Below are positions 2,947 through 57,653 of a DNA stretch of 64,000 nucleotides, one piece after another; position 1 is the first letter of the stretch, and each line of letters starts with the position of its first letter. Both the position numbers and the translations under genes were made by a program. This DNA is from a phage. Location of the stretch: assembly GCA_011939005.1 (NCBI GenBank), contig GCA_011939005.1_4858.1; one strand, given 5' to 3'. The notes beneath the pieces were generated by a model. The model was not told the DNA's origin and did no database searches. It saw only the letters and a list, made by a program, of their open reading frames with translations.

Positions 2947-3013
2947 TGGCTGTTTCCTCTAAGGATTCGGGTCATAGTATGAACTCGACGCCCTCAGAGA
3001 AAAGGAGTGTAAA

Positions 3014-6727: not shown

Positions 6728-6739
6728 GGAGATTTTTGA

Positions 6740-10870: not shown

Positions 10871-10965
10871 GACGGACTGCCTACGGGCGGGTAGTCCGTA
10901 GGTAAACCGCCCTTCCGTTATTGGGAGGGCGGTCTCCGTTTTATTACAGATTAGGAGTGTTTGCA
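10871..10965 (+). other. structured intergenic region with nested hairpins between fiber genes
   Basis: Inverted repeats CCTACGG/CCGTAGG and CCGCCC(T)TCC/GGAGGGCGG followed by T-rich tract. Confidence 0.4.
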
Positions 10966-13900
10966 ATGCCGAGAGAAGATGCGGCGCAGTTTAACGGTAC
11001 CCTCAGTACCGCTACTTACCCGAACCGTTATTCGACGGTCATTCCCGTCGAAGCACCGTTCTATCGCATCGGGTTAACGTTAACCGTTACCGATAAAACA
11101 ACCGGAACCAAACGCAAGTTAATAGAAGGTCTTGATTATTTCTTAGGACATTACTTCCAGGAATTAGCCGAGGCTGAGAACGATGCAATATACGGCAGCA
11201 TAATGCTGCTGAACGCCACAGAGGTAGAATACGAGTTATTGTCGGTTGGTCGACAGTATCGCATCCCTGCTTCTGAAATCGGCAAGTATCTGGTTAAGAC
11301 GGATATGAAAGACCCGCGCAACTGCGATTGGTCTGAGCTGATGAAATATCCGCCGATTATCTCGCCAATCGACCCGCCAAAAGATCTCGAAGAAGCCATC
11401 CTTCGCGATGAAATCGTAAAGGCGTTGGAAGATATCCGTCTGGGTATTTTAGAACGTGCCCACGAACTGGATGAGGCTTTTGCGGAAGTTACTGATTTGA
11501 TTTATCAGAACGGTAAAAAGGTGTTTGATGACGAAATGTATCAACACCACCTGATTAAAAATGCACATGGTTACACCTGCGGTGACATTGGCGCTCTCCC
11601 GGTACTCGGCAAAGCCGTAGATGCGACTAAGGCATTCGGACGTACCCTGGCAGAGCTAGTGACGTTAATGTCTACCAGTGGCATCCAACAGAAACACGTT
11701 GACATGCTTCTGGATAATACCCTGGGTGATTTACTGGGCCGTATGCGTGTTCTGAATAACGACGCGATTACGTTCCAAACAACGTCTGGTCACGTTATCA
11801 GCATGAAGGGTGAGAAGTTCATCATCACCTCGACAAAACCGCTGGTATTAAAAGCTGACCAGGATAACAACGAACCGGGTATCGCTACGGAGTTCAGTGC
11901 TGGTCTGAACACGCTTTGGGTTCACTCGGGTAAAGCAGGTGACAAGTGGGGCGCTTATGATGCAGGTGTGCTTGCACCTGTGTATAACAGCGTGTATCTC
12001 GTTACGCCGGATATGGTTAAGATGTACTTGACCTCGGTGAAGATACTTCCAGCAAACGCCTACTTCAAGTCCAGCGACACGTTGAAGATTTACGGCTCTG
12101 GTAAAGAAACAAACAAACTTTACATGAATGCGGAGCTGCCTGCAGCAACCACAACTGTGCAGGGTTTGTTTGCGATTACTAACCTTTCGGCGTCCGCTGC
12201 AGCATCCACAGCGATTTCCCAAAAAGCTGTTACTGACTTGAAGAACAAACTCGACGGATATGTGGACGACACGTATACAGTCAACGGTAAAGGGTTTGTA
12301 TTAGATTCAAACGGGCAGATGCATCTGACCTTAACCGCGGCAGATTTCGGTATTGAGAAGATGAACAATACCGGGCCGCTGGAGAAACCGGTTACTAATG
12401 CGTTGCGCACCGTGCTATCTGGCAAAGCGCTTACAACGCACACCCACACCATTGCCGATCTCGATAACGTGCCGTACGCATCCACGTCTGTTACAGGTTT
12501 GGCTAAACTGTGGGATGCTATTGACACCACAACAGATAAGATGGTTACTTCGCGTCAAGGCTTCTTGCTTGAACAGAAGATTGACACGCTGAATGACAAG
12601 ATTGCTACGTTATTACCGGCGTGGACTGTCGGCGGATCATCGTACGGCAACAATAACTTCTTGCCTATACCTGTCCAGGGGAACTACGAAGGGTATACCA
12701 AAAACCAAACCTGGCAGAAAGGTTTGGCGCGTTACGAGTCTGGTAAGGTTTACTCGCTCCGTAACGGTTCTAACGGGAACCCACCAGGTGACTGGGCTAT
12801 CTATTACGCCTATGCTGATGTGTCGCCAAGCAATACGCTGGAAAATATGCAGCAGACGTCCGTACGCTATCGACCCGCTGGAATGTCGGCGTATCCTGGG
12901 GTGAATCTGGTTGCTATTGTGATTACCGGTACCGATGCAATGATCTGCTTAGGCAGTGACGGTGCGTACTACCTGGTCATCTTCGATGGGACGATTGACC
13001 ATGCAAAACATCATCGTGTTGTTAAAGTGGTGTTGGGTGATTACAAGAACGGTAATGGTGCGGGCACAGTAACGACAGCACCGTGGGCTCCAAACGCTTC
13101 TACAGACGATTTGATTGTTTGTAATGAACGTGTCTACCTGTTGCGTACGGTGCTTACCTCCGGTAACTATTTCGTGAGTATGCGTAGCATCGCACTCAAC
13201 GAACTTAATCTGGGTGGCAGCAACACGTTTGTGGCGGATGCGTTAACAGGCGGGATATTAACGTCGGGTGAAAACGTTTATCTGCGACAGGGACAGAAAC
13301 GTGCACCTTCCGATGCGCTCCCAGCACCAGTTACACAGATCTACGCAGACGCGTTAGCGAAGTGGAACAATGCAACCAACTTTGTACATGGTCCTGAGTG
13401 TAATCACGCGATTGGTGTTGATGGGCTGAGCTTTCGTGTTGGTTTAACTCCAACGGTTTGGTTTGCTTCTACTACAGGGCAAACTATTAACTTTAAACAA
13501 TGGGTGTCAAGCTTTGTTGTCGACTGTAGCGCATTAACGGTAACGCTGGAAGGGGCTGATCGATTCCCTATTGTGGCTGATCTTACCACGGTTCGTTATA
13601 ACGGTGGTACTGAGATTGGGATTCCAAGCCGGAAGTGGGGCGAAGGTCAAGCTAATAACCGAACCTTTGCAACATCGCAAGACAAGTATATCGTTTCGCA
13701 GGGACATGCAGGCGATCGCGACCTAATGCCAATTGTCACGATTACCACGTTAGACGACGGTGTGAGTTGGTACGAGTACCTGTCGTGCGACTACAACTTC
13801 ACTGCCAGAAGTTTTAGTGCGGTAATGTTAAACCAAGGTCGTGGTTCTATCTACGAGCTAGGTATGGCGTATCCACTGACTCTGGGAGCGAATTCCAGAC

Positions 13901-16149
13901 TTATCTGGTTGTCACAGCCACGTTCCCGTTTGGCAATTGAAGTTGAGTTTGATCCGAACACCACTTACTCAGGTAAGGTGGGGTATGGCCCAACTAACAA
14001 TCGTCGTGTAGTAGATTCTATCACGTATGAGAATCTGTCGCAGATGTGCCACATTGTTACACCGGCGTCGCCTGGTACAGAGTTAAACGGCTGGTATTGC
14101 ACAGGGCCAGAAACATTCCCTTACCACAACGTTTCTGGCACTTTCACGATTCATGCCGATCGGTTGACGCTGTCACAGGCCGAATGGGATAAGATGAAGC
14201 AGATGATCATCGACGGTGCACCGGCAGGCGCTGCGAATGGTTATGCTTCGGAATTTATCCTTGCCGCAAATAACGCAGGAAAGGCATTGTTCTCCGTTTG
14301 GTTCATCGGCATTGGTACGGCCACACCGCTCACGTTAGCACAAGTAGCATGTACGCGTACTGTGAACAACGTTAACGTGTTGGATATCTACTACTTTACA
14401 CTGAAACCAACAATCAGCAACGGGCAGGTAACATTCCCCGCAGCGATATTGGCTTTGTTTGACTTCTATAACAACCTCGACTATAGCTTGAACTATGCTA
14501 CGTTGGGTGAGATAACGGGAGGAAAAACACGCCGGCCGGGACAACCTACCTTGGTGTCAGTAGATGGTACTCAGTTCGGGTTGTATCTTCCACACACGTT
14601 AACCTTGCGCCAAATTGGCGACTTGGGTGCGCTTAACTACGCTGTTGGTCTTACGCTGTCTAATGGTACTTGGACGCGTTCTTCTGCTCCACACGGCGTT
14701 GGACGTATGGCACCGTCACACACTCCAGTCAGTCCAGCTTATCTGGCACATCGCGATCAAGTGATGTTACACAACTCATCTCTCGACTACGTCTATTGTG
14801 GTGGTATCGCAACGCCGTCGAGAGATTTTGTCGCGGCTCCTAATTTTAGTGGCCCGACTGAATCGGTTGTCATTGCTGGTGTGGAAACAGCTGAAGGTTG
14901 GCTGGTATATGTGACTGAGGAAGTTGACCTGCGTTTCGGCTCGAGCACTTATAAGCTGCCTACGTGGTATATTGACCTCAGCGCAGCATTTCCAACAAAC
15001 CATCAGAACCGGACATTCTACCTGCACGCCAAGGTAGAAAATGGTACACCGAAGTACGTAATGGACGTGGTTCAACATCCAGACACTGAAACGGAACTCT
15101 ACATCGGGTATGTTAAAACGGGCTCGTCGCGAGTCGTCGAGACTAACGTCGAACATGCTAAGCGATTGGGGGCGGTGAAACAACTGTTGGAACATGCGGC
15201 GGTTGAGAATAAGCATGATGTGGAGGTGGGAAGGGATGCGGCAACGGGCAGACTGGCACCATTGCGTAAAGAAGCGATGGGTCCTTTGTCTATCGATGCT
15301 ACGAAAGGCTATCTGGATAGTCAGTTGCTTTATACCGTATCTGACGCACAGCGTCGCGGTAAACCGATGGTCTCCAAACGTTTCGAAGGCTTGAAAACTT
15401 TGCCGGCGTTTACTCAGGCAAACAAGTCGGGGGCGTTTTGGAAACATCCTACAACAATTGCGACGGTAACGGCCGATGAGAACGGTGAAGCGGCATCGTT
15501 GGGAATGGAGTGGGTGGGTATCCCTACGCCTGCTTTCTCTCCGACCTCAGGAATGATGATAGTGGTGATACAAAGTAAATTCGTCGTCCCAGGTACACCG
15601 GGAGTAGAAACGACCTTTAATGTCAACATCGCCCCATGGGATACGGTAGATAGATTTTTCTACAACGTCGAGGCGGAAGGTAAGGATGTTAACATTGAAG
15701 AAAATCCAGAAGTGCTAATGCCGACACCACATACCGTGTATCACAAACAGCATTCTCTGCCCGCAGGCGTGCCATGTACGTTTACTTTCGCTGCTGTGTT
15801 GAGTTCCCCAGCGCTTGAGATGGCCAACCAGCATATTTGCTCTTGGCTTTTCACGGACGCGGGGGGACTACCAATCACCACCGATCTTTCGGATAGTAAG
15901 ATTCAAATCTTACCATTGGGGGGAGAGACCTACGGCACACCAGTTGTTTTGAACAGCCGTAGCTACACGTTTGTGGATGTGGCGGGTGCAATTCCGGTTG
16001 TTACCACGGGCGCTCAGGGTTTATTCCCACCACCGATCGTGGCGTGGGATGGCGATGATCTTACGTTAACGATTGCGCACGATTGGGTGAACGAGAGAGG
16101 ATGGCAACAGCCTGATATTATCCAGGTCAATCTTATGTTCCGTACCTAA
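10966..16149 (+). CDS. tail fiber protein (about 1727 aa from internal ATG)
   Basis: ORF track starts at an upstream non-ATG codon; ATG at 10966 has RBS TAGGAG; shared N-terminal module; fibre-repeat-like segments (HTHTIADLDNVPYASTSVTGLAKLWDA). Confidence 0.65.
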   Translation: MPREDAAQFNGTLSTATYPNRYSTVIPVEAPFYRIGLTLTVTDKTTGTKRKLIEGLDYFLGHYFQELAEAENDAIYGSIMLLNATEVEYELLSVGRQYRIPASEIGKYLVKTDMKDPRNCDWSELMKYPPIISPIDPPKDLEEAILRDEIVKALEDIRLGILERAHELDEAFAEVTDLIYQNGKKVFDDEMYQHHLIKNAHGYTCGDIGALPVLGKAVDATKAFGRTLAELVTLMSTSGIQQKHVDMLLDNTLGDLLGRMRVLNNDAITFQTTSGHVISMKGEKFIITSTKPLVLKADQDNNEPGIATEFSAGLNTLWVHSGKAGDKWGAYDAGVLAPVYNSVYLVTPDMVKMYLTSVKILPANAYFKSSDTLKIYGSGKETNKLYMNAELPAATTTVQGLFAITNLSASAAASTAISQKAVTDLKNKLDGYVDDTYTVNGKGFVLDSNGQMHLTLTAADFGIEKMNNTGPLEKPVTNALRTVLSGKALTTHTHTIADLDNVPYASTSVTGLAKLWDAIDTTTDKMVTSRQGFLLEQKIDTLNDKIATLLPAWTVGGSSYGNNNFLPIPVQGNYEGYTKNQTWQKGLARYESGKVYSLRNGSNGNPPGDWAIYYAYADVSPSNTLENMQQTSVRYRPAGMSAYPGVNLVAIVITGTDAMICLGSDGAYYLVIFDGTIDHAKHHRVVKVVLGDYKNGNGAGTVTTAPWAPNASTDDLIVCNERVYLLRTVLTSGNYFVSMRSIALNELNLGGSNTFVADALTGGILTSGENVYLRQGQKRAPSDALPAPVTQIYADALAKWNNATNFVHGPECNHAIGVDGLSFRVGLTPTVWFASTTGQTINFKQWVSSFVVDCSALTVTLEGADRFPIVADLTTVRYNGGTEIGIPSRKWGEGQANNRTFATSQDKYIVSQGHAGDRDLMPIVTITTLDDGVSWYEYLSCDYNFTARSFSAVMLNQGRGSIYELGMAYPLTLGANSRLIWLSQPRSRLAIEVEFDPNTTYSGKVGYGPTNNRRVVDSITYENLSQMCHIVTPASPGTELNGWYCTGPETFPYHNVSGTFTIHADRLTLSQAEWDKMKQMIIDGAPAGAANGYASEFILAANNAGKALFSVWFIGIGTATPLTLAQVACTRTVNNVNVLDIYYFTLKPTISNGQVTFPAAILALFDFYNNLDYSLNYATLGEITGGKTRRPGQPTLVSVDGTQFGLYLPHTLTLRQIGDLGALNYAVGLTLSNGTWTRSSAPHGVGRMAPSHTPVSPAYLAHRDQVMLHNSSLDYVYCGGIATPSRDFVAAPNFSGPTESVVIAGVETAEGWLVYVTEEVDLRFGSSTYKLPTWYIDLSAAFPTNHQNRTFYLHAKVENGTPKYVMDVVQHPDTETELYIGYVKTGSSRVVETNVEHAKRLGAVKQLLEHAAVENKHDVEVGRDAATGRLAPLRKEAMGPLSIDATKGYLDSQLLYTVSDAQRRGKPMVSKRFEGLKTLPAFTQANKSGAFWKHPTTIATVTADENGEAASLGMEWVGIPTPAFSPTSGMMIVVIQSKFVVPGTPGVETTFNVNIAPWDTVDRFFYNVEAEGKDVNIEENPEVLMPTPHTVYHKQHSLPAGVPCTFTFAAVLSSPALEMANQHICSWLFTDAGGLPITTDLSDSKIQILPLGGETYGTPVVLNSRSYTFVDVAGAIPVVTTGAQGLFPPPIVAWDGDDLTLTIAHDWVNERGWQQPDIIQVNLMFRT

Positions 16150-16196
16150 CAGATAGCGCTATGGGGCAAGGAAGCCCCAATCAAAGGAGTTTGGCA

Positions 16197-17399
16197 ATGG
16201 CCGAAATCATTTATCAGTACCCGCTCGACCTTACCGGGACATTAACGTCGAACGCCGTTACGCGGCGTATTACGTTAGGTTCTGGTAAAGTTAACCGGGC
16301 TTTTGCATTTCCTGACGGAGCTTTCTACGCGGATACCTTCCGCTTGGCGGCTGCGAATAAACCAGGTGTCTACCCGTACAAACGCGGCACAGACTACGAA
16401 CTGATTTTTGCACATACTGCATATCAGAAAATGACCAAGAACCGCGAAGTGGTCATGGGTGTGGTGGTAACTAACTCGGCCATTCCTACTGATATCGAAG
16501 TCTCTGCGCAAGTCGTTGGTGGTTTTCAGTCCGCGAACGTCGAAGGCATCCGACAAGCGATTGCGTCGTTGAAAATTGAAGACCGCGTGGTGGACTTCAA
16601 GGATCTTCGAAACGTACCCGATACGTTCCCGTCCGCACCGACGTATAAAGACCTTGGCGATATCTACGGTTTTGAGTATATCATTACCGTACTCGCGGGG
16701 ATTAAAGATGCGATTAACTCCGGCTCTGCAGTACAGCTGGAAGAAATTAAAGGTATTCTGGGTGGTCTGAAAAACGACTTCCTCGACGCCTTAAATGCCC
16801 ACATCAACGCCGAAGGTAACGTACACAATCTCGACATTCATCAGGTTAATGGCCTGACGGAGACGGAGATTCGTGCCCTGATTCAAAGTGTACAGACTGC
16901 CATTGACGCCACCATCAAAGATATCGGCGACTTAAGAGCAGCAGACACAGCGTTGGGGCAACGCATCGATGCAATTGTGGCTTCGTTAGCCGCGTGGAAC
17001 GACCAGCTTAACGTGGTTGCTCAAAATTACCAGAAAATGTCGTTAGCATTAGCTAACCTTAATTCTCTGGTGTTGCAATTACAGAAGATGGTTAACGATC
17101 TTCAGTCTGCACTGAATAAAACAAATCAGCGCGTCACGGATCTTGAGAATCAGGGCAAAGACTTCCAACAGCAAATTGATAACCTGCAAGGACAAATCAA
17201 CAGTCTTAAAACTCAGGTTGTAAATAACACCAACGCAATTTCGCAGGCAAACCAGAATCTGGCGAACCATGCGGCTGCGGATAACCCACACCCGAATTAC
17301 CTCCATAAACAGTATGGCGGTGTTGTGCAGGCTGCTGTTCACGTCAACAACAACCTCACCTCGCGCGACGATGTTCAAGCTGAAGCGGGTACTAAGTAA
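16197..17399 (+). CDS. fiber-associated coiled-coil protein (about 400 aa)
   Basis: Internal ATG with RBS AAAGGAG; shared N-terminal module (GTDYEL); long heptad-like Q/N/L-rich C-terminal region. Confidence 0.55.
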   Translation: MAEIIYQYPLDLTGTLTSNAVTRRITLGSGKVNRAFAFPDGAFYADTFRLAAANKPGVYPYKRGTDYELIFAHTAYQKMTKNREVVMGVVVTNSAIPTDIEVSAQVVGGFQSANVEGIRQAIASLKIEDRVVDFKDLRNVPDTFPSAPTYKDLGDIYGFEYIITVLAGIKDAINSGSAVQLEEIKGILGGLKNDFLDALNAHINAEGNVHNLDIHQVNGLTETEIRALIQSVQTAIDATIKDIGDLRAADTALGQRIDAIVASLAAWNDQLNVVAQNYQKMSLALANLNSLVLQLQKMVNDLQSALNKTNQRVTDLENQGKDFQQQIDNLQGQINSLKTQVVNNTNAISQANQNLANHAAADNPHPNYLHKQYGGVVQAAVHVNNNLTSRDDVQAEAGTK

Positions 17400-17464: not shown

Positions 17465-17857
17465 ATGGCGATATCTATTAAAGACGTCAGAAACCGCGTC
17501 CAGATAGTCGAAGCTAACATGGCGACAGGCCCCCGCGTCGACGCGCAAGTGGCCTCTAAAGCCCATAATGCGGCAGACCGATTTGGGGGTTGGACGAAAA
17601 CACAGCTAGATTGCGGAGGGACATGTTCTTGGACGTGCTCTAACGGTTGCTCGCATGGCTGTTCGAGCTGTTCAGGAAGCTGTTCTGCTTCTTGTATCGG
17701 TAGCTGTTCTTCGACGTGTGGCGGTAACTGTTCTGGTTGCTCTGGTTGTTCTGGTGGTTGCAGTAGTAGCTGTACCGGTAACTGCACAGGTGGTTGCGGT
17801 GGCTCTTGTTCTTCCAATTGTTCCGGAGCCTGCTCCGGTGGCTGTTCAGGTCGCTAA
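17465..17857 (+). CDS. Cys/Ser/Gly tetrad-repeat small protein A (130 aa); candidate RiPP precursor
   Basis: RBS AAGGAAG; N-terminal ~50 aa non-repetitive leader-like region, then about 21 Cys in C-x3 (sometimes C-x2) spacing built only from C/S/G/T/N/A. Confidence 0.6.
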   Translation: MAISIKDVRNRVQIVEANMATGPRVDAQVASKAHNAADRFGGWTKTQLDCGGTCSWTCSNGCSHGCSSCSGSCSASCIGSCSSTCGGNCSGCSGCSGGCSSSCTGNCTGGCGGSCSSNCSGACSGGCSGR

Positions 17858-17867
17858 GGGGGATTAA

Positions 17868-18272
17868 ATGGCAATTGGATTAAAAGAACTGAATAACCGA
17901 TTAAACACGATCGATGCAAACGCTCTAAAGAATACCACGAATGTGCAAAACTACATTCGCAATAAAGCTACGAATAACGCTGACTTGTTCGCAGGTCAAG
18001 GTCGTTCGCACTACGACTGTGGTGGTACGTGTTCTTTTAGCTGCTCAAGTTGCTCTGGCGGGTGTACTGGGTCTGCGACAGGTGGTTGTGGGTCGACTTG
18101 TTCGGCAAACTGTGTATCAGGCTGTAGCAGCAGCTGCACGGGCTGTAGCTCTTCGTGCTCTGGTGGTTGTAGCGGCACGTGCACAGGCAGCTGTTCTGGG
18201 GGTTGTGGTAAATCCTGCTCCGCAAACTGCTCAGGTGCGTGCTCTGGTGGTTGTTCAGGTCCTAACTCCTAA
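17868..18272 (+). CDS. Cys/Ser/Gly tetrad-repeat small protein B (134 aa); candidate RiPP precursor, paralog of A
   Basis: RBS AAGGGGGA; leader-like N-terminus similar to A (I.LK..RNRL), core starts DCGGTCS and ends CSANCSGACSGGCSG, nearly identical to A. Confidence 0.6.
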   Translation: MAIGLKELNNRLNTIDANALKNTTNVQNYIRNKATNNADLFAGQGRSHYDCGGTCSFSCSSCSGGCTGSATGGCGSTCSANCVSGCSSSCTGCSSSCSGGCSGTCTGSCSGGCGKSCSANCSGACSGGCSGPNS

Positions 18273-18287
18273 CTGACGGAGGCTTAT

Positions 18288-18494
18288 GTGATCAGTCTCA
18301 AGACTATTCGAAACCGTCTCGTTACGGCAGAAGGTTACATTACAACCGCACAGGCAAACAACTATATCGCTAACCAGGGCACCGTGTCGACCACAAATAA
18401 CCTGGCTGGCTTACCGCTTTCTCACTATAACTGTAATGGTGGGTGTAGCTGGTCCTGCAGCGGAAGCTGTAGCCGTGGAGCGGGGAATCGATAA
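18288..18494 (+). CDS. short paralog C (68 aa) with truncated Cys-repeat core
   Basis: Apparent GTG start with GGAGG RBS; leader-like region similar to A/B; core NCNGGCSWSCSGSCS. Confidence 0.45.
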   Translation: MISLKTIRNRLVTAEGYITTAQANNYIANQGTVSTTNNLAGLPLSHYNCNGGCSWSCSGSCSRGAGNR

Positions 18495-18516
18495 CAGAAA
18501 ACGTTCGGAGTATTAA

Positions 18517-19404
18517 ATGAAAAACGATTTGCATCTTGCGTATAAAACCACATTCAACCACCCGCTGCATCTATCTTCCCCAGATTCAGTGCGTGCACAT
18601 CTCGCTGACAAAGTCAGACTGATTGCACAGATTCCTGGTGAGTGGCCAAAGGTTCGTGGTCGCTTCTTGACCGACAAGAAGAACTACACCGTAGAAAATA
18701 CGTTTAAGATCCGTGATATGGTTGCAGAGGCCATCGTTATCTTTAACGGCGATGGTAACTCTCGCGGCGTGTTGGTTGACGGTAAGTATTTCTTCAGTGA
18801 AGGGATTCTGAACAACAGTGTCGATTTAGAACTGATGTTTACACCGTTTGACGAACTTGAAGCAAAACCGATGGCGCGCCGTTGGTGGAGTCCGGACTAT
18901 CTGGGCTCGTTCCCTTACTACTTTGTACTGGTACCTGCCGATACGGAAACGTATTTCGACACCGAACCATACATCGATATCGAGGGGTATAAAGAACTCG
19001 GCATCACCCGTTTAGCGGACATGATGGCGTATAGCTATAAGTTCGTGTGGGATAAAAAGCGTTCTGTCTGGTATGCGCTGACTGACGATTTTGAAATCAC
19101 CAAGCGTATTCGTAAGCCGTGGATGCAACACCTGGTTCAAACTCGATATGGGGATTACCCGGCGACAGAAGCGGATTTGAGTAAGCTGGTAAGTTTCCTC
19201 TTAACGAAGGTGGATTTAACGAAAGAAGAAGCAGAAGCTGTTTCTGAGATTCGTGGTCGTTCGGTAACGTTGGCCGATTTGAAACGTCTGAACGAAAGAC
19301 ACGCCGACCTGAACAAAATTTTAGCTGCCTATCACGACCCGATGTTACTGGTGCCTGGCGCTAACGTAGACGAAGATCCTTTATTCGCCATTGATTATAT
19401 TTAA
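18517..19404 (+). CDS. hypothetical protein (295 aa) in Cys-peptide/radical-SAM operon
   Basis: RBS GGAG; co-oriented and tightly spaced with neighbours; no motif recognised. Confidence 0.55.
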   Translation: MKNDLHLAYKTTFNHPLHLSSPDSVRAHLADKVRLIAQIPGEWPKVRGRFLTDKKNYTVENTFKIRDMVAEAIVIFNGDGNSRGVLVDGKYFFSEGILNNSVDLELMFTPFDELEAKPMARRWWSPDYLGSFPYYFVLVPADTETYFDTEPYIDIEGYKELGITRLADMMAYSYKFVWDKKRSVWYALTDDFEITKRIRKPWMQHLVQTRYGDYPATEADLSKLVSFLLTKVDLTKEEAEAVSEIRGRSVTLADLKRLNERHADLNKILAAYHDPMLLVPGANVDEDPLFAIDYI

Positions 19405-19426
19405 AAATATACTGGAGCAACCTGCA

Positions 19427-20341
19427 ATGACAGATCAAGTAGAATCCAGGATCTCGTCTGAACTGTACGACAAACCGTCAATTCTGTCGGTTGTCGCAAC
19501 TTCTAAGTGTAACTTAGACTGTAGCTTCTGTGGAGGGGCTTATTACATGGATAGAGAAGATACTTCTCGTGAGTTTCAACGTGAAGAGATTCTCTCGATT
19601 TTAGAGAAGAATCCGGATATCGGTGAGATTCATTGGACGGGCGGTGAGCCGCTGTTAGCGCAGCGCAAGATTGAAGACTTCGTGAACGAGTTGAAGGAGT
19701 CTCATCCGAACCTCCGTCATCACATGTACACCAACGGTTTAAAGATGCGTAAATCACATCTGCCGTTGCTGAAACAGTTCGACCTTATCTTTGTGTCCAT
19801 TGACGGCTACAAGAAGTCGGAACGTCCGTTTATGAACTTTGTAAACGGTGGTAATCACGAAGCGCTGGAAGTGCTGTACGAGCTGGACAACTATTACACC
19901 TGGGGTGTGATGACGCGTGACCAGTTAGGTGATAAACGCTGGTACGAAGATTTCATCGAGCTGCACCGAGCAATCTATCATTACCGTCCAGGTGGTATGT
20001 CGTTGCTGTTTGATGCGATGATGCCGAAACCGTTATCGCCAGACCACGTCATGAACTTCATGTACGGGTATTGGAAAATACTCGACAATATCGAACGCCT
20101 TAACATGCAGAACGATTCTGAATGTGGGCTTGCGATCAGTAAAATGTTCGATACCGAGTGCAACACGTGCAGTGAAGTGCTGTGGCTTAACGCCGACGGT
20201 ACGCAGGAGCAAATTCAGAACGCCCCAGAGATATTGGAAGTCGGCTGTAATCGCCTGGCGCGTTCTATCGGCGTTGATGCGTATAACTACATCAACCGTG
20301 TAATTTCTGCTAAGCGTAAACGGGCGGCGAACAATGAGTAA
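19427..20341 (+). CDS. radical SAM enzyme (about 304 aa)
   Basis: C-x3-C-x2-C (CNLDCSFC) about 28 aa from the internal ATG start (RBS GGAG); GGEPLL motif; extra C-terminal cysteines (CGLA...CNTC...C) suggest an auxiliary cluster. Confidence 0.75.
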   Translation: MTDQVESRISSELYDKPSILSVVATSKCNLDCSFCGGAYYMDREDTSREFQREEILSILEKNPDIGEIHWTGGEPLLAQRKIEDFVNELKESHPNLRHHMYTNGLKMRKSHLPLLKQFDLIFVSIDGYKKSERPFMNFVNGGNHEALEVLYELDNYYTWGVMTRDQLGDKRWYEDFIELHRAIYHYRPGGMSLLFDAMMPKPLSPDHVMNFMYGYWKILDNIERLNMQNDSECGLAISKMFDTECNTCSEVLWLNADGTQEQIQNAPEILEVGCNRLARSIGVDAYNYINRVISAKRKRAANNE

Positions 20342-21662
20342 TAGCGAACAGCAAATCCAGTACACACCACGCACGTATCAGGTTGTGACTAACCTGTCAT
20401 GTAACCTGGACTGCGAATACTGCTACGAGCGTAAATATCCACGCAATAACAAAGTAGCTGACGTGATTGATTTTATCCACGCTTGCTTCGAGCGCGATAA
20501 AGATATCCCGAACGTTGAAGTCATCATCGATATCATCGGTGGTGAGCCGTTCATGCAGCCTAAACTTCTTTTGGCGGCCTTTGAAACCGCAGAGAAGTTA
20601 TGCGCAGAACACAATCGCCCGTATATGTTCAGTATCTCCACGAACGGTACACTTCTGGACCGTCCGCTGAACAAAGAAATTATCGAGCGCTGGAAAGACA
20701 AACTGTCTATTGGGGTCTCCATCGATGGTTTACCTGAAGTCCATGACAAATATCGTATCTTTACCACGACGCGTGAAGGGTCGTACGAAGCTGCGGTACG
20801 TGGTTACAATTATCTGAAGAGTGTTGGCATCGCTGAACTGGGCGTAAAGGCGACGTTTACGATCGATACATTGCCGCACTATGCCGCCAGCATGAAATCG
20901 TTAATTGACATGTCCGGCGGTGGTACCATTTCTGGTAACGTAACGTACGAAGATATCCTACCGCGCCATATGGCGTTGGATATCGCGAACCAGATGATGG
21001 ACGTGATGGACTACTGGATTGAGAAGGGTCTGCACACCAACCCGCGTAACACGATTACACACATCATCCCGGATGGCCTGAACTTTATGGCAACTTGGGA
21101 CCCGGATTGGCGTGACAAACTCTTACATGACGACTCTGTTCGTCTCGACCCAGAACGCCTGAAACCGTACTGCGGTACGTTGACGCACATGACCTGTCTC
21201 GGCTTTGATCGCAAGATTTACGGTTGTAACCGTTTCATGTCCACGGTAACTTCCCGTTCTGCTGTAGCAGAACTGGTCGGTCGTGAGTTTGTGAGCCTGG
21301 ACGGTGGTAAGCTGTTAGAAGAGATTCAAACGCAGTACACCAACTACCCAGAAACCTGTTTAGGGTGTCCGATGAAACACAGTTGCGGTAGCTGCGCGGC
21401 AGCATCGTACGAAAACGGTGAAGGTACACTGGAAGACCGTAAAGCGTATCATGCCGAGCGTCGTCAGTGTGGTTGGACTACTGCGAAGCTGATGGCGGCA
21501 GAATATTGGTATCAGAAAACTGGTACGACCCGCGCATCAGATTTGCATGATAAATCCATGTGCTATTGTTCACGTTGTGTACGCCAACGTGCTGAAGCAG
21601 AAAAATTACAAAACGGAGCCCAGAATGAAGTCAATACTGATTCACAATTTTACGAAGCGTAA
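20334..21662 (+). CDS. radical SAM enzyme with SPASM-like C-terminal domain (442 aa)
   Basis: CNLDCEYC near N-terminus; C-terminal cysteine cluster C-x2-C-x5-C-x2-C plus upstream Cys; start ATG overlaps stop of the upstream radical-SAM gene (translational coupling). Confidence 0.8.
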   Translation: MSNSEQQIQYTPRTYQVVTNLSCNLDCEYCYERKYPRNNKVADVIDFIHACFERDKDIPNVEVIIDIIGGEPFMQPKLLLAAFETAEKLCAEHNRPYMFSISTNGTLLDRPLNKEIIERWKDKLSIGVSIDGLPEVHDKYRIFTTTREGSYEAAVRGYNYLKSVGIAELGVKATFTIDTLPHYAASMKSLIDMSGGGTISGNVTYEDILPRHMALDIANQMMDVMDYWIEKGLHTNPRNTITHIIPDGLNFMATWDPDWRDKLLHDDSVRLDPERLKPYCGTLTHMTCLGFDRKIYGCNRFMSTVTSRSAVAELVGREFVSLDGGKLLEEIQTQYTNYPETCLGCPMKHSCGSCAAASYENGEGTLEDRKAYHAERRQCGWTTAKLMAAEYWYQKTGTTRASDLHDKSMCYCSRCVRQRAEAEKLQNGAQNEVNTDSQFYEA

Positions 21663-22191
21663 ACTGCACTTGGTCGATCGCTTCCTGCGCAAAAGCAAGC
21701 TGTACAATGTGCACGCAATTGTGGCAGGGGAAGACTTCACTGATGAAATCCAAAGCCTGTTGATTAAATACGGGCTGAATGTGATGATCCCGGTCTACTG
21801 CGTTGAGAAAGGACACGAGTCTGTCGCAGAAATCGAAAAGCGCAATCCTGGCTTTGAGAAGCGATTGCTCGCATACCCACGCCACAAAATCGAACTGCTA
21901 CGTCATTCCATCGATGAAGCCAGTCCTGAAAGTTTAGTGGCTTTGGGCTTGTCTTTCCCGCGGATGCGTATTCGTAACTTACGCTCCAATAATCCGGTCG
22001 ACGCGTATTACACAGAGCGTCAAATCTTTGAAGAACATCTGCTCCCGCAGTTGGAAGAAGAAGAGCAACACAACATTTCGTTGTTGTGGGCCGGTAACCT
22101 CGATCAGGACTTCCAGATGCTGGACTTCGGTTTGTTGTTAGAACTTGGCCTGATTGAGGAGGACGAATGTCTGTTACTGACAAAAGCTTAA
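21625..22191 (+). CDS. hypothetical protein (about 188 aa)
   Basis: Internal ATG with RBS GGAG; overlaps end of upstream gene; same operon. Confidence 0.45.
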   Translation: MKSILIHNFTKRKLHLVDRFLRKSKLYNVHAIVAGEDFTDEIQSLLIKYGLNVMIPVYCVEKGHESVAEIEKRNPGFEKRLLAYPRHKIELLRHSIDEASPESLVALGLSFPRMRIRNLRSNNPVDAYYTERQIFEEHLLPQLEEEEQHNISLLWAGNLDQDFQMLDFGLLLELGLIEEDECLLLTKA

Positions 22192-22838
22192 CGAACGAAG
22201 AGATCCGCGCCCGTTATTTCCAGCGCAATTTGCCGATTGACCGACACGGCAACTTCATGGAACGTATCGGTGCAGAGGATCAAGGCCGTACAGGCTTTTG
22301 CGCTCTGCTCCATTATCATCTCATCGAAGGGATGTCTGATAAAGAAGCCCTGGCACGCATGAAGCTGTATGAGATGTCGGAGATTGAAGCTAACTTCACA
22401 TTGAAACGCACGAAAGAGTTTATTGCTAATGTGCTGGAGATTGACCTCGACGAAATTCGCGGGAATCTAAAATCTACCGCACGTTACATTTACGAAGACG
22501 TGCAGAAGATGCTGTTGGAACTCGACCACCGCTACGAAGATGAGCGCCATGGTTATATCGAGTTTGAAGGTAGTCACTTTCAAGCCGATGAATCGTCGCG
22601 TACCATCCTCGGTCAATACATTCAGGCAGATACCGCACCAGAATACTGGCTCGATACGCTGAATACTAAGCACAGTCCGTTTACAGTAGACCAATGTAAA
22701 GCGTTGTTGGGCGCTATTGTTGCACGCGACCAAGTGTTGCACTCAGCAATGGCAGATAACAAACGCCAAATCCGTGAGTTAGCTGAAAAGCGCGATTACA
22801 CTGGATTAAAAACATTGTCCGAGTCACTCGGCATGTAA
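22167..22838 (+). CDS. hypothetical protein (223 aa), last gene of operon
   Basis: RBS GAGGAGG; followed by strong terminator. Confidence 0.5.
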   Translation: MSVTDKSLTNEEIRARYFQRNLPIDRHGNFMERIGAEDQGRTGFCALLHYHLIEGMSDKEALARMKLYEMSEIEANFTLKRTKEFIANVLEIDLDEIRGNLKSTARYIYEDVQKMLLELDHRYEDERHGYIEFEGSHFQADESSRTILGQYIQADTAPEYWLDTLNTKHSPFTVDQCKALLGAIVARDQVLHSAMADNKRQIRELAEKRDYTGLKTLSESLGM

Positions 22839-22852
22839 GCAAAGAAAATAAA

Positions 22853-22895
22853 GGCCCTACCTCCCCGAAGGGAGGTAGGTACCTTTTATTTATTT
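22853..22895. terminator. bidirectional rho-independent terminator
   Basis: 10-bp stem CCTACCTCCC / GGGAGGTAGG with CGAA loop, T-rich on both sides. Confidence 0.7.
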
Positions 22896-22919: not shown

Positions 22920-23447
22920 TTAAACGAATCCGTCCAGTTCACCGTTGGTGGTACTCAGGTCAGTTTTAACGATTGGCTGCGTTACAGTATAAACTGCAAG
23001 GCTGGCAGGCTGGTATTTAATGTGGCCTTCTTTCACCTTAACAGTGATGATTTTCTCACCACTGTCGCCGTCCTCGCGTGTAATGGTGAGTTCAGACAAT
23101 GCAAACGCATCTTCCGTTTTACCGGCAGCAATTAGATCTGCGTTGACAAAAGCAAGCACTTCTTCATCGGTATCCCATTCTGCCTGGTCAGCGGTAACTG
23201 CTTTCGCACCGATGATGTTCAATGAATCGAGGCGGGTATAATGCAGCTCTTTCTCGCCAGTAAAGTTAGCGGATTCCGCGGTGGCAGTGATGGTGAGTTT
23301 GGAGTTGCGATGGTCTCCAGAATCTGCTGGTGAATAGTCAGCAACAGCGCCGAATGTAACGTCAGCAGAAGTTAACGGACTAGACAGTCCGCTGTTTGCA
23401 GCATTAAACAGCGCAACGAGTTGGTCTTTTGCAGAGATGACTGCCAT
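22920..23447 (-). CDS. fiber-like protein, short member of the N-domain paralog family, C-terminal NGELDGF motif
   Basis: Internal ATG with RBS AAGGAAA; N-terminus resembles the 36982-43059 array; ends TNGELDGFV. Confidence 0.5.
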   Translation of the reverse strand: MAVISAKDQLVALFNAANSGLSSPLTSADVTFGAVADYSPADSGDHRNSKLTITATAESANFTGEKELHYTRLDSLNIIGAKAVTADQAEWDTDEEVLAFVNADLIAAGKTEDAFALSELTITREDGDSGEKIITVKVKEGHIKYQPASLAVYTVTQPIVKTDLSTTNGELDGFV

Positions 23448-23571
23448 GGTTGTTTCCTTATAGTAGGTTTGTGGTGCATACCAAATCATTCTAAAAAATA
23501 CATAGTGGGGTTAATATGACAGTAAAGTTGGCTGTTAAACGAGAAAGTTTTTACCACTGAAAGGATACCTT

Positions 23572-24063
23572 ATGAAACGTCTATTTATCGTATTCGCGAT
23601 TATAAACCTGTTGGTCGGTTGTGTTCAGTCGCCAAACAACATCGGGCAATTTAGCGCCACGCCAGTAAAGAATCACGACTTGGTGATTTATACATGCACA
23701 GGAACGCAGGAGAAGTTTGTAGACTACCGTCCGGTTCTGGACAACCTACAAATGATGCCGCGGTCAGTAACAGTATTGGATGTGGGTGCAAGCTGGGTAG
23801 CAACGTGGGACGGTGGCAAACTTGAGTCACCGATGATGTTTAAAGATACAATTGGCAAAATCGACGGGAATGTTAACACCACCACAGGTGAGCGTTATTA
23901 CCGTATTAATAAAACCGTAAACGATAGCCCCACTTACTCTTTTTCGGATGTGAACCCGTATACCGGCGAAGGTAAAGGGATGACATTCTTTCGCTGCAGC
24001 AGCGGGTTTATCGGTGAAGTTCCTACCCCGATTACGATTGTTCCGTTAGAAGAAAATAAATAA
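23572..24063 (+). CDS. predicted lipoprotein (163 aa)
   Basis: N-terminal signal peptide with lipobox (LLVGC); followed by GNRA-loop terminator. Confidence 0.6.
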   Translation: MKRLFIVFAIINLLVGCVQSPNNIGQFSATPVKNHDLVIYTCTGTQEKFVDYRPVLDNLQMMPRSVTVLDVGASWVATWDGGKLESPMMFKDTIGKIDGNVNTTTGERYYRINKTVNDSPTYSFSDVNPYTGEGKGMTFFRCSSGFIGEVPTPITIVPLEENK

Positions 24064-24110
24064 TGCTTACCCACTCCCGTAAGGGGAGTGGGTAAGGGCT
24101 TTATTTACCC
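24064..24110 (+). terminator. rho-independent terminator
   Basis: Stem TTACCCACTCCC / GGGAGTGGGTAA with GTAA loop, then T-rich tract. Confidence 0.7.
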
Positions 24111-24188
24111 TCTAAAACGCTCTGTAACGCTCTCTAAGCGCATTAAACGTATCAAATGATAAATGATATTACTTTTGATTAAAGTGGC

Positions 24189-24704
24189 TTAGATTTTAAC
24201 TAGCTTGCTCCAATCGATGGGTTGTTGCTTAACCACTTTAACGGTACCACGTGTCGGTGACCAGAAGGTGATATCAGGCTGGTTGCGTACGTCAACATGC
24301 AGCCAGGTAATATCGCACTCGATAAAGTGAATAAATGGAAACTCGTCAGGGTTCGCGGCAATATAATCGTGCACTTTCTGCAACGGAGTATCAAGCATTG
24401 TTGCATCAAACGCATTACCGAATTTATGCATACTGCCTGATTCGGCGTACAGTTTGTTTGCACGAGTTTGCCAATCGCCACCCTTTGGTTTCTCTTGATT
24501 AATAAAGAACTGCAGGGTACGCAGACTACGCTGTTGCTGGGAACTGGTTAAAATCACCATCCGCCCAAAACGATTACGAATCTGTTGGAGCGAGATTAGC
24601 AGTAACGGATTAAGGAAACGAATAGCACCTTCACCGTATTTCGCGATGTACTCCTGCGGCATCAACTCTTTTAACGCGAAGTTGGCAGGATTCGGATGAA
24701 ACAT
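24189..24704 (-). CDS. peptidase M15-like zinc peptidoglycan peptidase (171 aa), putative
   Basis: Motifs S-M-H-K-F-G-N-A-F-D (S.H..G.A.D) and W-L-H-V-D consistent with the His/Asp/His zinc site of M15/VanY-type cell-wall peptidases. Confidence 0.45.
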   Translation of the reverse strand: MFHPNPANFALKELMPQEYIAKYGEGAIRFLNPLLLISLQQIRNRFGRMVILTSSQQQRSLRTLQFFINQEKPKGGDWQTRANKLYAESGSMHKFGNAFDATMLDTPLQKVHDYIAANPDEFPFIHFIECDITWLHVDVRNQPDITFWSPTRGTVKVVKQQPIDWSKLVKI

Positions 24705-25355: not shown

Positions 25356-25643
25356 ACTGACCTCATGTCATATAACGCACGAGCATCGTGAGGACCATTA
25401 ATCCCAGTAAAATGGGCATTAAGCCTTTCGGCCAGTCGTCGTTGTCGTATTGCATGGCTTTACCCTCTGACAGAAGATCGTGCGTAATAGTTTGAAGAAC
25501 CCAGAATCGTAATACGTTTCCGGAACAGTTTGTACTTCGGGGAACTTAGGCGGAGTTGGACGGTGGGTCATTACGTTTTCTCCTTGCAGCAAAAACAAGG
25601 GCGCGCCAGATAGCTTTCATTAAGGCAGCAAACCAATTCTGTT

Positions 25644-26348: not shown

Positions 26349-28517
26349 CTATTTCTTTGGCCGCACCCACGGTTTAGGGGCGGATTTGGTATACGGATTA
26401 CATTCCATCATCTTACCGAGGTAGGCATCGTAATACACGAAGCGATCGACATAGAACTTCTCCACCGGTGCACTACTGGTAGCCGATTTCACCCGGTTGC
26501 GTTCCACAGCGAGGCTAATCGCCCCGGTAGGTGCGGGTTTTAGCGTGAACATTACCGCGCGGTTGTAACGCCAAGTGTCGTGCACAATATCAAACTCCGA
26601 TACACAGTGTGCCATGATACCAAACAATGTGGTGGCTGGTAAGTTGGCTACAGCATCGCCGTATGGTGTTCCCACCAAACCGCCGGGTATGTTTTGCTTT
26701 TTGAACAGCGTACCTGAAATAATCGTACCTAAGAACTCCACAACTACAGGCTTGGTTGGGTCGGTGACTTTATCTATCCCATCCGCACTGGCCAATCGGT
26801 TGGCATCTAAATCTGCGAGGTAGTCGAGGAACTCTTGGTACTCGTCGGTAACATTCGGTTTCACCGTTCCGACGGATACCCAGTTGACGATACTTTTATT
26901 CCCACCGACAGCTTCGCCTGCCATCCCAGGGCGAGTCCATGACATCCCGTCTTCACGACCGTAGACATAGACTGGCGAGCCGGTAGCCGGGGTGTTCCAT
27001 TGCTCGAACGCTGTATATCGTCCCGGCTGGCCCCAATCCCCACCCGGACCGCCATAGTAGCGACTCTGGTAGCCGGTAAATTGCGCGACGACTAACTGGG
27101 TAGCACCGCCTTTGTCACGGGACCCAGCTAAGCCGTTACGGTTATTGGTGCCGCTGGGCACCGCCGCGCCTGGCCCGAGAGGCGCACCACCAGCTCCACC
27201 GATCTTGGTGGTGCTAAACGCATAGTAGTCGCCCCCACCCCCACCACCGGCGATGGTGCCGTAGTTTTCGATGGTGACTTTGCCACGGAAGGTATCGCTA
27301 ATGTGGATTGCGTCAGCTCCGTCCGCTGATGTGTTCGCAGGCATAGAGTAGACCACACCCGAACCACCACGACCAAGAATGGTTCCCCGGTTAACGAAGT
27401 TCCAAACCACCTCGCCAATTTGCGGCAATTCGTCGATAACGAACGTCGGTTTCAGGTTGCTGTCGCGATAAACGAAAGCCCCCGCATCTACGGTCACGTT
27501 AACAAACAAACGCCCGCACGCCGCATGGTTGGTCAACGTTGTGGCCCAGTAGCTGTCCGAAAGTTGCGACGTAGTTGTGTAGTTCAGGTTAAGGGTTTGC
27601 TCGTTATCTTGATAGCGTGCTACATTCAACGTGGCACTGCCCATGACTTTGTACGAACCCTCTACGGGTGCCAATTGCACTTGTCTCGGCCACTCGCCTG
27701 CCAGGTTCTCTACAGGAGCAATTTCGTTTACATCAAAAACACTCCGAATGCCGAGTGTCTCGATGGCCAGAGCATCGTGCAGGCTACCGGTGAAATCATC
27801 CGGGACGTATGTGGTTTTGCCTGCATATGTCTCGAGTTTGTTACGTGAGAAGAACACATACTTCGTTCCAAACATCCCGCTCCCCGGTCTAGCGGTCAAA
27901 GCTACGACGCTGTTATACGCAGAGGTTTGGCCTATATCCTCCGGGGACATCGGGGCGCTGACATCGACTTTATCAAGATCCACGATCCGTTTGGTTGCAT
28001 TAGAGTAGAAGTTAATCCACTGCTGCTTATTCGCAGCCTTTAGCGTGAAAATGATATTGGTAACAGTGTAGACAGTGTTGATATCCACGTCACCGTTTAT
28101 CACATCTAGCGTTTGGCTGCCGTACCAGATAAGACTTGTCTGTTTCGCCTGGAACGTGATGCGCGCAGCATTGTTTGTCCAAGTGATGGGCAGGTCTTCA
28201 AAGTCGTCGGTTAAAAAGGTAATCCCTAGTAGAGTGTCTAAATGCGGCAACAGTTCGTGGATGGACGCACAAGTGGGAATGGCATCCAACTTAACCTTGG
28301 CGAAATAATCAGCAATATTTTGCTTCGTGACTTGGGCCGTAATTTGACCGTAACTAGAATACCCCGGACCCCCTGTCAGTGTGACGTCTAGGGTTTTTTC
28401 GTCACGATGCGCCACGGACACCAGGCGTACGTTAGCGGGGTCTACTGCTTTGGCGACCGCGTTTTTACGGTTGAGCGACCGAATCACGGTCGCCACTAAA
28501 TCGGGAGTGTATGACAT
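26349..28517 (-). CDS. fiber-like protein (722 aa) with Gly-rich region; N-domain paralog family
   Basis: RBS AAGG; N-terminal module resembles the array genes; poly-Gly/GGxGG segment. Confidence 0.6.
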   Translation of the reverse strand: MSYTPDLVATVIRSLNRKNAVAKAVDPANVRLVSVAHRDEKTLDVTLTGGPGYSSYGQITAQVTKQNIADYFAKVKLDAIPTCASIHELLPHLDTLLGITFLTDDFEDLPITWTNNAARITFQAKQTSLIWYGSQTLDVINGDVDINTVYTVTNIIFTLKAANKQQWINFYSNATKRIVDLDKVDVSAPMSPEDIGQTSAYNSVVALTARPGSGMFGTKYVFFSRNKLETYAGKTTYVPDDFTGSLHDALAIETLGIRSVFDVNEIAPVENLAGEWPRQVQLAPVEGSYKVMGSATLNVARYQDNEQTLNLNYTTTSQLSDSYWATTLTNHAACGRLFVNVTVDAGAFVYRDSNLKPTFVIDELPQIGEVVWNFVNRGTILGRGGSGVVYSMPANTSADGADAIHISDTFRGKVTIENYGTIAGGGGGGDYYAFSTTKIGGAGGAPLGPGAAVPSGTNNRNGLAGSRDKGGATQLVVAQFTGYQSRYYGGPGGDWGQPGRYTAFEQWNTPATGSPVYVYGREDGMSWTRPGMAGEAVGGNKSIVNWVSVGTVKPNVTDEYQEFLDYLADLDANRLASADGIDKVTDPTKPVVVEFLGTIISGTLFKKQNIPGGLVGTPYGDAVANLPATTLFGIMAHCVSEFDIVHDTWRYNRAVMFTLKPAPTGAISLAVERNRVKSATSSAPVEKFYVDRFVYYDAYLGKMMECNPYTKSAPKPWVRPKK

Positions 28518-44023: not shown

Positions 44024-44047
44024 GTAATATATATCTGAAAATAATTG
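44024..44047 (-). promoter_or_regulatory. promoter-like motif, copy 1 (minus-strand reading TTTTCAGATATATATTACTT)
   Basis: Shares TTTCAGATA.AT.TTA core with two other intergenic sites; contains -10-like TATATT; lies between a terminator and an RBS/ATG. Confidence 0.4.
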
Positions 44048-48502: not shown

Positions 48503-48568
48503 TTTAAGTGCTCCTTAATACATGACATAAGCTCTGATTGAAACGTAAATTTCAGAGGTTCACTGAGA

Positions 48569-48590
48569 TAACATCTATCTGAAATAAAAT
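48569..48590 (-). promoter_or_regulatory. promoter-like motif, copy 2 (minus-strand TTTCAGATAGATGTTATCTCAGTGAACCT)
   Basis: Near-identical to copy 3 over about 25 nt; TG.TAT extended -10-like element. Confidence 0.45.
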
Positions 48591-57633: not shown

Positions 57634-57653
57634 ATAACATCTATCTGAAAAGT
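57634..57653 (-). promoter_or_regulatory. promoter-like motif, copy 3 (minus-strand TTTTCAGATAGATGTTATTTTACTGAACCT)
   Basis: Conserved with copy 2; TG.TATTTT extended -10-like element. Confidence 0.45.

Follow-up and report, generated by a model that had tools for sequence, protein, structure and literature searches.

Llp of phage T5 is a phage-encoded lipoprotein that blocks FhuA, and the Cor exclusion lipoproteins of phages T1, phi80, N15, and HK022 are encoded in a gene order of the stf-tfa-cor type. Here we compare these systems with a gene found in a 64,000-nucleotide stretch of phage DNA (GenBank assembly GCA_011939005.1, contig GCA_011939005.1_4858.1; "the window" below means this whole stretch, and all coordinates are positions in it). 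The gene lies at 23572..24063 on the + strand, and its product is a homolog of gp159 of the Salmonella jumbo phage SPN3US (SPN3US_0159, annotated there as "hypothetical protein"), with 93% amino acid identity. An initial annotation made from the sequence alone had described a lipobox-containing protein of 163 amino acids at this location; the open reading frame (ORF) and the lipobox are present exactly as it described them.

We consider it very likely that gp159 is a nonstructural, late-made outer-membrane lipoprotein, processed by Sec and LspA and carrying a periplasmic beta-barrel, of the chimalliviruses that infect Enterobacterales. As to its function, we tentatively rank first an Llp-like role in exclusion or in the protection of progeny, played by a protein unrelated to Llp. 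This ranking is based on the predicted location of the protein, its absence from virions, the recurrent linkage of its gene to tail and fiber genes, and its restriction to phages of one host order. Roles as a lysis accessory or as a periplasmic binder or inhibitor follow, each less probable than exclusion and about equally so.

The lipoprotein precursor and its family

The ORF begins with an ATG codon, and a ribosome-binding site, AAGGA (23561..23565, +), is found 6 nt 5' of it; both were read from the sequence. The N terminus consists of MKR, LFIVFAIINLLVG, and Cys17. It forms a signal peptide of the signal peptidase II type, MKRLFIVFAIINLLVG (23572..23619, +), in which two positive charges are followed by a 13-residue hydrophobic core and the lipobox LVG-C17. 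The Cys17 codon (23620..23622, +) specifies the predicted lipid attachment site, residue 1 of the mature protein, and the +2 residue is Val. We looked for a positive n-region, an h-region of 7 to 22 hydrophobic residues, and a lipobox of the form [LVI][ASTVI][GAS]C, and the gp159 homolog has all three features of a lipoprotein precursor. The signal peptidase II site that the initial annotation had proposed to check belongs to a textbook signal peptide and is kept across the family: the lipobox is present in every full-length member, and its Cys is present in 16 of 17 diverged members, the exception being a called sequence without any signal peptide. A lipobox scan of the 64-kb window, covering every possible start in six frames, identified the gp159 homolog as the sole credible lipoprotein; the two remaining matches were a 32-residue ORF and an ORF antisense to the gp159-homolog gene.

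The +2 residue in the family is Val, Ala, Ser, Lys, or Thr. Because no member has Asp at this position, the Lol +2 rule predicts that the protein is sorted to the outer membrane, and we infer from these sequence features that gp159 is lipidated and located there.

Between positions 22800 and 24800, the DNA is 95 to 98% identical to that of 34 Seoulvirus jumbo phages, including SPN3US, SPLA1a, and the SPFM phages. Searches with tblastn found gp159 homologs in 66 phage records, with Salmonella, Erwinia, Escherichia, and Proteus as hosts; the lowest identity among the matches was 32%, in Goslar. When 1.84 billion cluster representatives were searched exhaustively with HMMER, the family comprised only 14 proteins. 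Every member belongs to a nucleus-forming jumbo phage of Enterobacterales; no cellular homolog was recognized, and all genomic contexts examined were phage-like. The only PHROG match of the gp159 homolog was to phrog_9559, annotated as function unknown. It had no match in Pfam, NCBIfam, or PADLOC, and Pfam searches with all 17 members at an E value of ≤10 gave merely scattered single-member noise. Residues C42, G72, R108, Y110, R111, S125, G132, G134, and C142 are invariant across the 17 diverged members, so that the family has two invariant cysteines besides that of the lipobox; Cys17 is itself invariant in one alignment (A2) and nearly so in another (A3).

In nine Seoulvirus genomes, the ratio of nonsynonymous to synonymous divergence (dN/dS) of the gp159 gene was ~0.2. 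This value indicates purifying selection and therefore a real gene rather than a chance ORF. Its synonymous divergence (dS) of 0.14 was roughly double the value for the two flanking genes (0.07), and this raised divergence with doubled dS may reflect allele exchange. Within a 10-kb neighborhood, gp159 was the most diverged protein, with 93% identity to SPN3US (versus 97 to 100% for its neighbors) and 61% identity to SPAsTU (versus 71 to 90%), but in comparisons with the more distant Erwinia phages it was not the most diverged. Faster divergence than that of neighboring genes among close relatives supports, in our view, an Llp-like role.

Annotation of the gene in GenBank is uneven. The start positions of gp159 homologs are inconsistent, giving proteins of 126 amino acids in SEGD1, where the signal peptide is lost, and of 182 amino acids in SaP7 and JN03. 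Several SPFM genomes have many indels across the region, which break the matches into ~31 pieces.

Purified particles of SPN3US have been analyzed by gel-based liquid chromatography-mass spectrometry (GeLC-MS). Among 83 proteins detected in four preparations, gp155 and gp160 were found, both of them also in tailless heads, and gp167 to gp171 were tail associated; gp159 was detected in none of the preparations (PMC5105663, Table S4). The initial annotation had held that localization to the virion would speak against its proposal, and the absence of gp159 from the 83 virion proteins fits an exported protein. We consider it very improbable that gp159 is a virion or assembly component missed by mass spectrometry, such as a low-copy decoration tied to the DUF7941 head proteins. 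The gene is always adjacent to structural genes of the DUF7941/gp160 family, and small low-copy proteins can escape GeLC-MS. However, four preparations with so many proteins identified did not yield it, and the conserved lipoprotein signal peptide implies export to the periplasm, away from the cytoplasm in which capsids are assembled.

Predicted fold and candidate ligands

An AlphaFold2 model built from 17 sequences had a mean predicted local distance difference test (pLDDT) score of 82.1 and a predicted template modeling (pTM) score of 0.70, with most of the core at pLDDT values of 90 to 96. Input of 5 sequences gave a pLDDT of 39.6, which was unusable, and the model reported here is that from the 17-sequence input. 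Its parts are a signal helix, a short tether, an all-beta domain, and a floppy, variable C-terminal tail. The mature domain is confidently modeled as an eight-stranded beta-barrel on a short tether. The tether (residues 18 to 26, VQSPNNIGQ; 23623..23649, +) varies among homologs and has no secondary structure in the model, with residues 18 to 22 at pLDDT values of <50. The barrel domain (residues ~27 to 145; 23650..24006, +) holds all of the invariant residues from C42 to C142, and a disulfide between C42 and C142 probably stabilizes it. The tail (residues 146 to 163, with the stop codon at the end; 24007..24063, +) was modeled with low confidence (pLDDT of 47 to 50 in the last two 10-residue blocks). 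It varies in length and sequence among homologs, and its C terminus, GEVPTPITIVPLEENK, is polar and is missing from several of them. No transmembrane segment was found in this tail. The mature protein has 147 residues, of which 6.8% are Pro.

Sequence searches of PDB with two family profiles found nothing below an E value of 0.13. A search of BFVD returned family members, weak matches to other uncharacterized phage lipoproteins, and nothing else. The fold matches were generic for small eight-stranded barrels; the top match was a cytoplasmic domain (Cap15) of a cyclic oligonucleotide-based antiphage signaling system (CBASS), and transmembrane barrels scored equally.

A barrel of this kind might neutralize a periplasmic enzyme or a small ligand, a role that we regard as unlikely. 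It could be a hydrolase inhibitor, as MliC/PliC are for lysozyme and T4 Spackle is for the tail lysozyme, or it could block a host envelope defense or stress sensor, or it could carry a lipid-like ligand in the manner of lipocalins or YceI. The Gly-rich loop G132/G134/G136 and the invariant residues R108, Y110, and R111 are candidates for a binding site, and two genes resembling peptidoglycan hydrolases lie nearby in the window. The generic nature of the fold matches argues against this role, as does the fact that no member matched Pfam MliC or any other inhibitor family, even at an E value of ≤10. Generic fold resemblance is the sole link between gp159 and inhibitors of the MliC/PliC type, which we count among the closest described systems together with other small eight-stranded barrel lipoproteins (the C-terminal domain of NHBA, fHbp, and the TbpB/HpuA barrels). 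The form of this explanation in which gp159 would inhibit gp158 is weakened further by Erwinia phages that keep the lipoprotein while no gp158 homolog was found within the ±7-kb loci searched. The inhibitor families described so far target lysozymes of the c, g, and i types and are not known to target GH108 or M15 enzymes, which we also count against such a role.

Transcription, gene neighborhood, and lysis

A bidirectional intrinsic terminator (24066..24106, both strands) begins 3 nt past the stop codon of the gp159-homolog gene. It consists of a 13-bp stem and a 5-nt loop (24066 to 24096), with T-runs on both strands. Its folding free energy is -28.4 kcal/mol (z = -5.96 relative to shuffled sequences), and the hairpin and T-run are found at the same position in 6 of 6 aligned phages, including Wellington and Huxley, in which the stem sequence differs and the structure is kept. 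The terminator is common to this gene and the convergent gp158-homolog gene (24189..24704, -). The initial annotation had credited the lipoprotein gene with its own terminator. The terminator is real, as judged from its stem, T-run, free energy, and conservation, but it is shared with the convergent gene and so is not strictly the gene's own. The data support the view that the gp159-homolog gene forms its own small transcription unit. Past the terminator, a noncoding stretch of ~45 nt, CCCTCTAAAACGCTCTGTAACGCTCTCTAAGCGC (within 24097 to 24150), is kept in SPN3US, SPAsTU, Asesino, and partly in Wellington; it had no match in Rfam.

Upstream of the gene, an alignment of six phages showed two conserved islands in an otherwise poorly conserved intergenic region, both of which contain TATG. 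Island 1, TATATGAC, lies ~55 nt before the lipoprotein start and is kept in SPN3US, SPAsTU, Asesino, Huxley, and Wellington. At the same distance from the ATG in the window is TTAATATGACAG (23511..23522, +; TATG at 23515 to 23518), a candidate late-type promoter or transcription start motif, that is, one for the nonvirion RNA polymerase. Island 2, TATGCAC(C), precedes gp160 on the opposite strand; the gp160 homolog has its own TATG at 23477 to 23480 (-), in TATGCACC, and a comparable TTAATATG precedes the head-paralog operon. Back-to-back TATG motifs, one pointing toward each gene, occur in the intergenic region at 2947 to 3013, between divergent late operons, and in that at 23448 to 23571, which is likewise divergent (e.g., CATAGTATGAAC and CATACTATGACC), and they resemble the late-promoter core of phiKZ, whose late promoters have TATG (T-3ATG+1) as their sole conserved element (PMC7598289). 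With 4 occurrences in the window against 7.2 expected, the 7-mer ATATGAC shows no enrichment, and for this reason the putative promoter function of the TATG motif upstream of the gp159 homolog rests on conservation across phages.

Three other intergenic sites carry a second kind of motif, the AT-rich TTCAGATAKATRTTAY; 0.2 sites would be expected by chance, with the caveat that these three also served to derive the pattern. The motif was not present in the intergenic region upstream of the gp159 homolog. Written as TTCAGATA(G/T)AT(G/A)TTA(T/C), it has three exact matches (44024 to 44039, 48568 to 48583, and 57634 to 57649, all -), located just past hairpin terminators and 40 to 70 nt before gene starts. 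We propose it as a candidate consensus for the early (virion RNA polymerase) promoters of this phage. The gp159 homolog appears to be expressed late, to judge from the conserved TATG motif, the absence of the AT-rich candidate early motif, and the membership of the gene in structural operons in three other lineages.

In the window, the direct neighbors of the gp159 homolog are the gp160 homolog (22920 to 23447, -), its divergent partner, which is a DUF7941 and abundant head protein with Pfam and PHROG matches, and the gp158 homolog, which is peptidase-M15-like. The statement of the initial annotation that the gene stands beside fiber genes is therefore only loosely true of the window, but it applies literally to two other lineages, in which the lipoprotein gene is directly 3' of a tail or tail fiber gene. 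In Goslar and a Goslar-like contig, a gp160-like gene, a P1-S-like tail fiber gene (~1170 to 1320 codons), a Caudo_TAP tail fiber assembly gene, and, 41 to 44 nt on, the lipoprotein gene follow each other on one strand. A third lineage has a weakly gp160-like 279-residue protein (phrog_2935, E = 5e-8), a 1375-residue "tail protein" (phrog_2871), and the lipoprotein gene 29 nt on. In a fourth lineage, the lipoprotein gene is the last of a head-paralog operon, 13 nt past the preceding gene, while in Seoulvirus and in the Erwinia phages Asesino, Huxley, and Wellington the gp160-like and lipoprotein genes are divergent and ~125 bp apart. What stays constant in every lineage examined is that, 5' of the lipoprotein gene, there is a structural gene belonging either to the DUF7941/gp160 family or to the head-paralog array, which itself includes DUF7941 members. 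In the lineages other than those with the divergent arrangement, the lipoprotein gene is probably cotranscribed with structural genes.

On the 5' side, beyond the gp160 homolog, the + operon ends at 22838 with the gp161 homolog, a DUF4376 protein, followed by a terminator at 22856 to 22879. The preceding block (17465 to 22838, +) contains several small ORFs, two genes for radical S-adenosylmethionine (radical-SAM) proteins (the gp164 and gp163 homologs), and the DUF4376 gene, and it is what the initial annotation had called an operon resembling those for ribosomally synthesized and posttranslationally modified peptides (RiPPs). All relatives examined, both Seoulvirus and Erwinia phages, have this block beside the lipoprotein locus. 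The gp170 to gp167 homologs (3014 to 17399, +) are large virion proteins of the baseplate or fiber class.

On the 3' side, the gp158 homolog is almost invariant in the nine Seoulvirus genomes (dN of 0.001 and dN/dS of 0.01, with a dS similar to that of gp160), a constraint far stronger than that on either flanking gene. SPN3US gp158 was reported in virions but not in heads (PMC5105663). Next come the gp157 homolog (DUF1353), a 30-residue ORF with one transmembrane segment (MQYDNDDWPKGLMPILLGLMVLTMLVRYMT; 25363 to 25455, -), and the gp156 homolog, a GH108 endolysin. A small ORF at the position of the 30-residue ORF, in the interval between the DUF1353 and GH108 genes, is also found in SPLA1a, SPAsTU, Asesino, Huxley, and Wellington, and it may encode a holin-like or endolysin-associated membrane peptide. 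Past the gp156 homolog lie the gp155 homolog (26349 to 28517, -) and a long array of head paralogs. The gp155 homolog (722 amino acids) has an N-terminal DUF7941-like "virion structural" domain and a Gly-rich region that matches PHROGs annotated "tail fiber protein; host specificity," yet SPN3US gp155 was found in tailless heads. One possibility is a head fiber, which would be notable for a phage reported to be flagellotropic.

The proximity of these genes raises the alternative that gp159 is a lysis accessory, acting late at the outer membrane or peptidoglycan together with the GH108 endolysin, the M15-like peptidase, and the 30-residue membrane peptide. In this role, it might set the time or place at which the envelope breaks down, or it might serve as an atypical spanin component of the outer membrane. 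We regard this as unlikely, to about the same degree as a binder or inhibitor. The late-type promoter motif and the structural operons of other lineages would suit such a role. In Seoulvirus, Asesino (Erskinevirus), and Wellington, moreover, the lipoprotein gene lies within 0.1 to 2 kb of the DUF1353 gene, the small transmembrane ORF, and the GH108 endolysin gene, but in Huxley and Goslar it is no longer next to the endolysin cluster. As a predicted outer-membrane lipoprotein with apparently late expression, gp159 would share the topology and timing of Rz1-type o-spanins. It differs from them in that no i-spanin partner gene is adjacent, overlapping, or embedded, and in that it is a confidently predicted folded periplasmic barrel with only 6.8% Pro and not a short, Pro-rich peptide.

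Two spanin types were considered and rejected. For a two-component o-spanin, the flanking gp160 and gp158 homologs lack a transmembrane segment, N-terminal or otherwise, on reading their sequences, and the length, composition, and fold of the mature protein do not fit. For a unimolecular spanin like T1 gp11, a C-terminal transmembrane segment is missing, the C terminus of gp159 being polar and variable. We conclude that gp159 is not a spanin.

The near-identical genome of SPLA1a contains an unannotated pair of adjacent genes (OR413578, 190947 to 191456 and 191466 to 191945) that resembles a separated spanin pair. The first encodes a protein of 169 amino acids with a transmembrane segment at residues ~30 to 55, followed by a helical, charged region and an end rich in Pro; the second, 10 nt on, encodes a 159-residue Pro-rich lipoprotein with the lipobox LLLTGC. 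Both proteins fall in function-unknown PHROGs, and the genome has no annotated spanin or holin. This pair is a much better spanin candidate than gp159, and because it is present elsewhere in the genome, gp159 would not be needed for lysis.

Exclusion and comparison with described lipoproteins

If gp159 has the Llp-like role that we tentatively prefer, it would act as follows. The protein would be translated in the host cytoplasm, most likely late and from the TATG-type promoter, and exported by Sec. Lipidation and cleavage at Cys17 would involve Lgt, LspA, and Lnt, and Lol would then take the protein to the outer membrane and place it in the inner leaflet. From this position, the eight-stranded barrel of ~120 residues would hang into the periplasm on its tether of ~10 residues. 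Its target would be an envelope component, conserved among enterobacteria, on which the phage tail depends after capture at the flagellum; this might, for example, be a secondary receptor, or the barrel might interfere in the periplasm with tail penetration or DNA ejection. Infected cells, as well as debris and vesicles, would then cease to take up or inactivate phages of the same kind.

Several observations weigh against this proposal. The reported receptor of SPN3US is the flagellum (PMC11428620), which a lipoprotein in the inner leaflet cannot mask, so that a secondary target must be assumed. The gp159 homolog in the window adjoins no fiber gene, the gp170 to gp167 homologs being at least 6 kb upstream, and guilt by association is weak evidence in any case. 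Its expression looks late, as opposed to that of the early-expressed Llp, Imm, and Sp. Neither PHROG, Pfam, NCBIfam, nor PADLOC contained an exclusion-annotated family for the gp159 homolog, and Foldseek searches of PDB found nothing below an E value of 0.06; gp159 has no specific relative in sequence or in structure. In an hhalign comparison of the family profile with T5 Llp (using a sequence 100% identical to llp in the T5 genome), the signal peptide alone aligned, over 17 columns and with a probability of 36%. The dN/dS ratio in the nine Seoulvirus genomes gave no signal of positive selection in gp159, and SPN3US shares an identical gp159 with a phage listed on Proteus.

We also put forward, with somewhat more doubt, a broader idea: gp159 could found a new, nonhomologous class of late outer-membrane beta-barrel lipoproteins by which nucleus-forming jumbo phages of Enterobacterales close the envelope to phage entry. 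The targets of such a class could be a secondary receptor, a step of tail penetration, or a flagellar basal structure, and a second possible role would be to spare progeny from being wasted on debris.

Research on nucleus-forming jumbo phages mostly concerns the shielding of DNA inside the cell. The literature that we searched held nothing on how these phages handle competition or the loss of progeny at the cell envelope, and, for SPN3US and Goslar, nothing relevant on gp159, lipoproteins, spanins, or exclusion. Conserved, found only in phages, predicted to be exported, and with a confidently predicted fold and a clear location prediction, gp159 offers an easy entry point. We consider it a real gene, unstudied in that literature, and moderately interesting rather than surprising. 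If gp159 does block entry, it would give chimalliviruses their first described exclusion factor acting at the envelope, it would identify the postflagellar receptor step of SPN3US-like phages, and it would be relevant to the design of phage cocktails that contain them.

The initial annotation had likened the placement of the gene to that of llp in T5, and this analogy holds in part. Both proteins are phage-encoded lipobox precursors, absent from the virion, and outer-membrane lipoproteins (by prediction in the case of gp159). Both genes are short and stand alone, and each points away from a virion gene across an intergenic region of ~80 to 125 bp that contains back-to-back promoter elements, which are putative in the case of the gp159 homolog. 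The partner differs, being the receptor-binding protein in T5 and the head protein gp160 homolog here, and the neighbors in the window are not fiber genes; it is in the Goslar-like phages that gp159 homologs adjoin a tail fiber module, as llp adjoins the receptor-binding protein gene pb5. The proteins themselves are unlike: mature Llp has 61 residues, whereas mature gp159 is far longer and is predicted to fold as a beta-barrel. Llp is made early and gp159 apparently late, and the target of Llp is FhuA, while the receptor reported for SPN3US is not an outer-membrane transporter.

The comparison with Cor follows similar lines. The gp159 homolog matched none of the Cor families in PHROG or Pfam, and gp159 is much larger and comes from a virulent, nucleus-forming jumbo phage. 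The gene order, however, is alike: stf-tfa-cor resembles the succession of fiber, tail fiber assembly, and lipoprotein genes in the Goslar-like phages.
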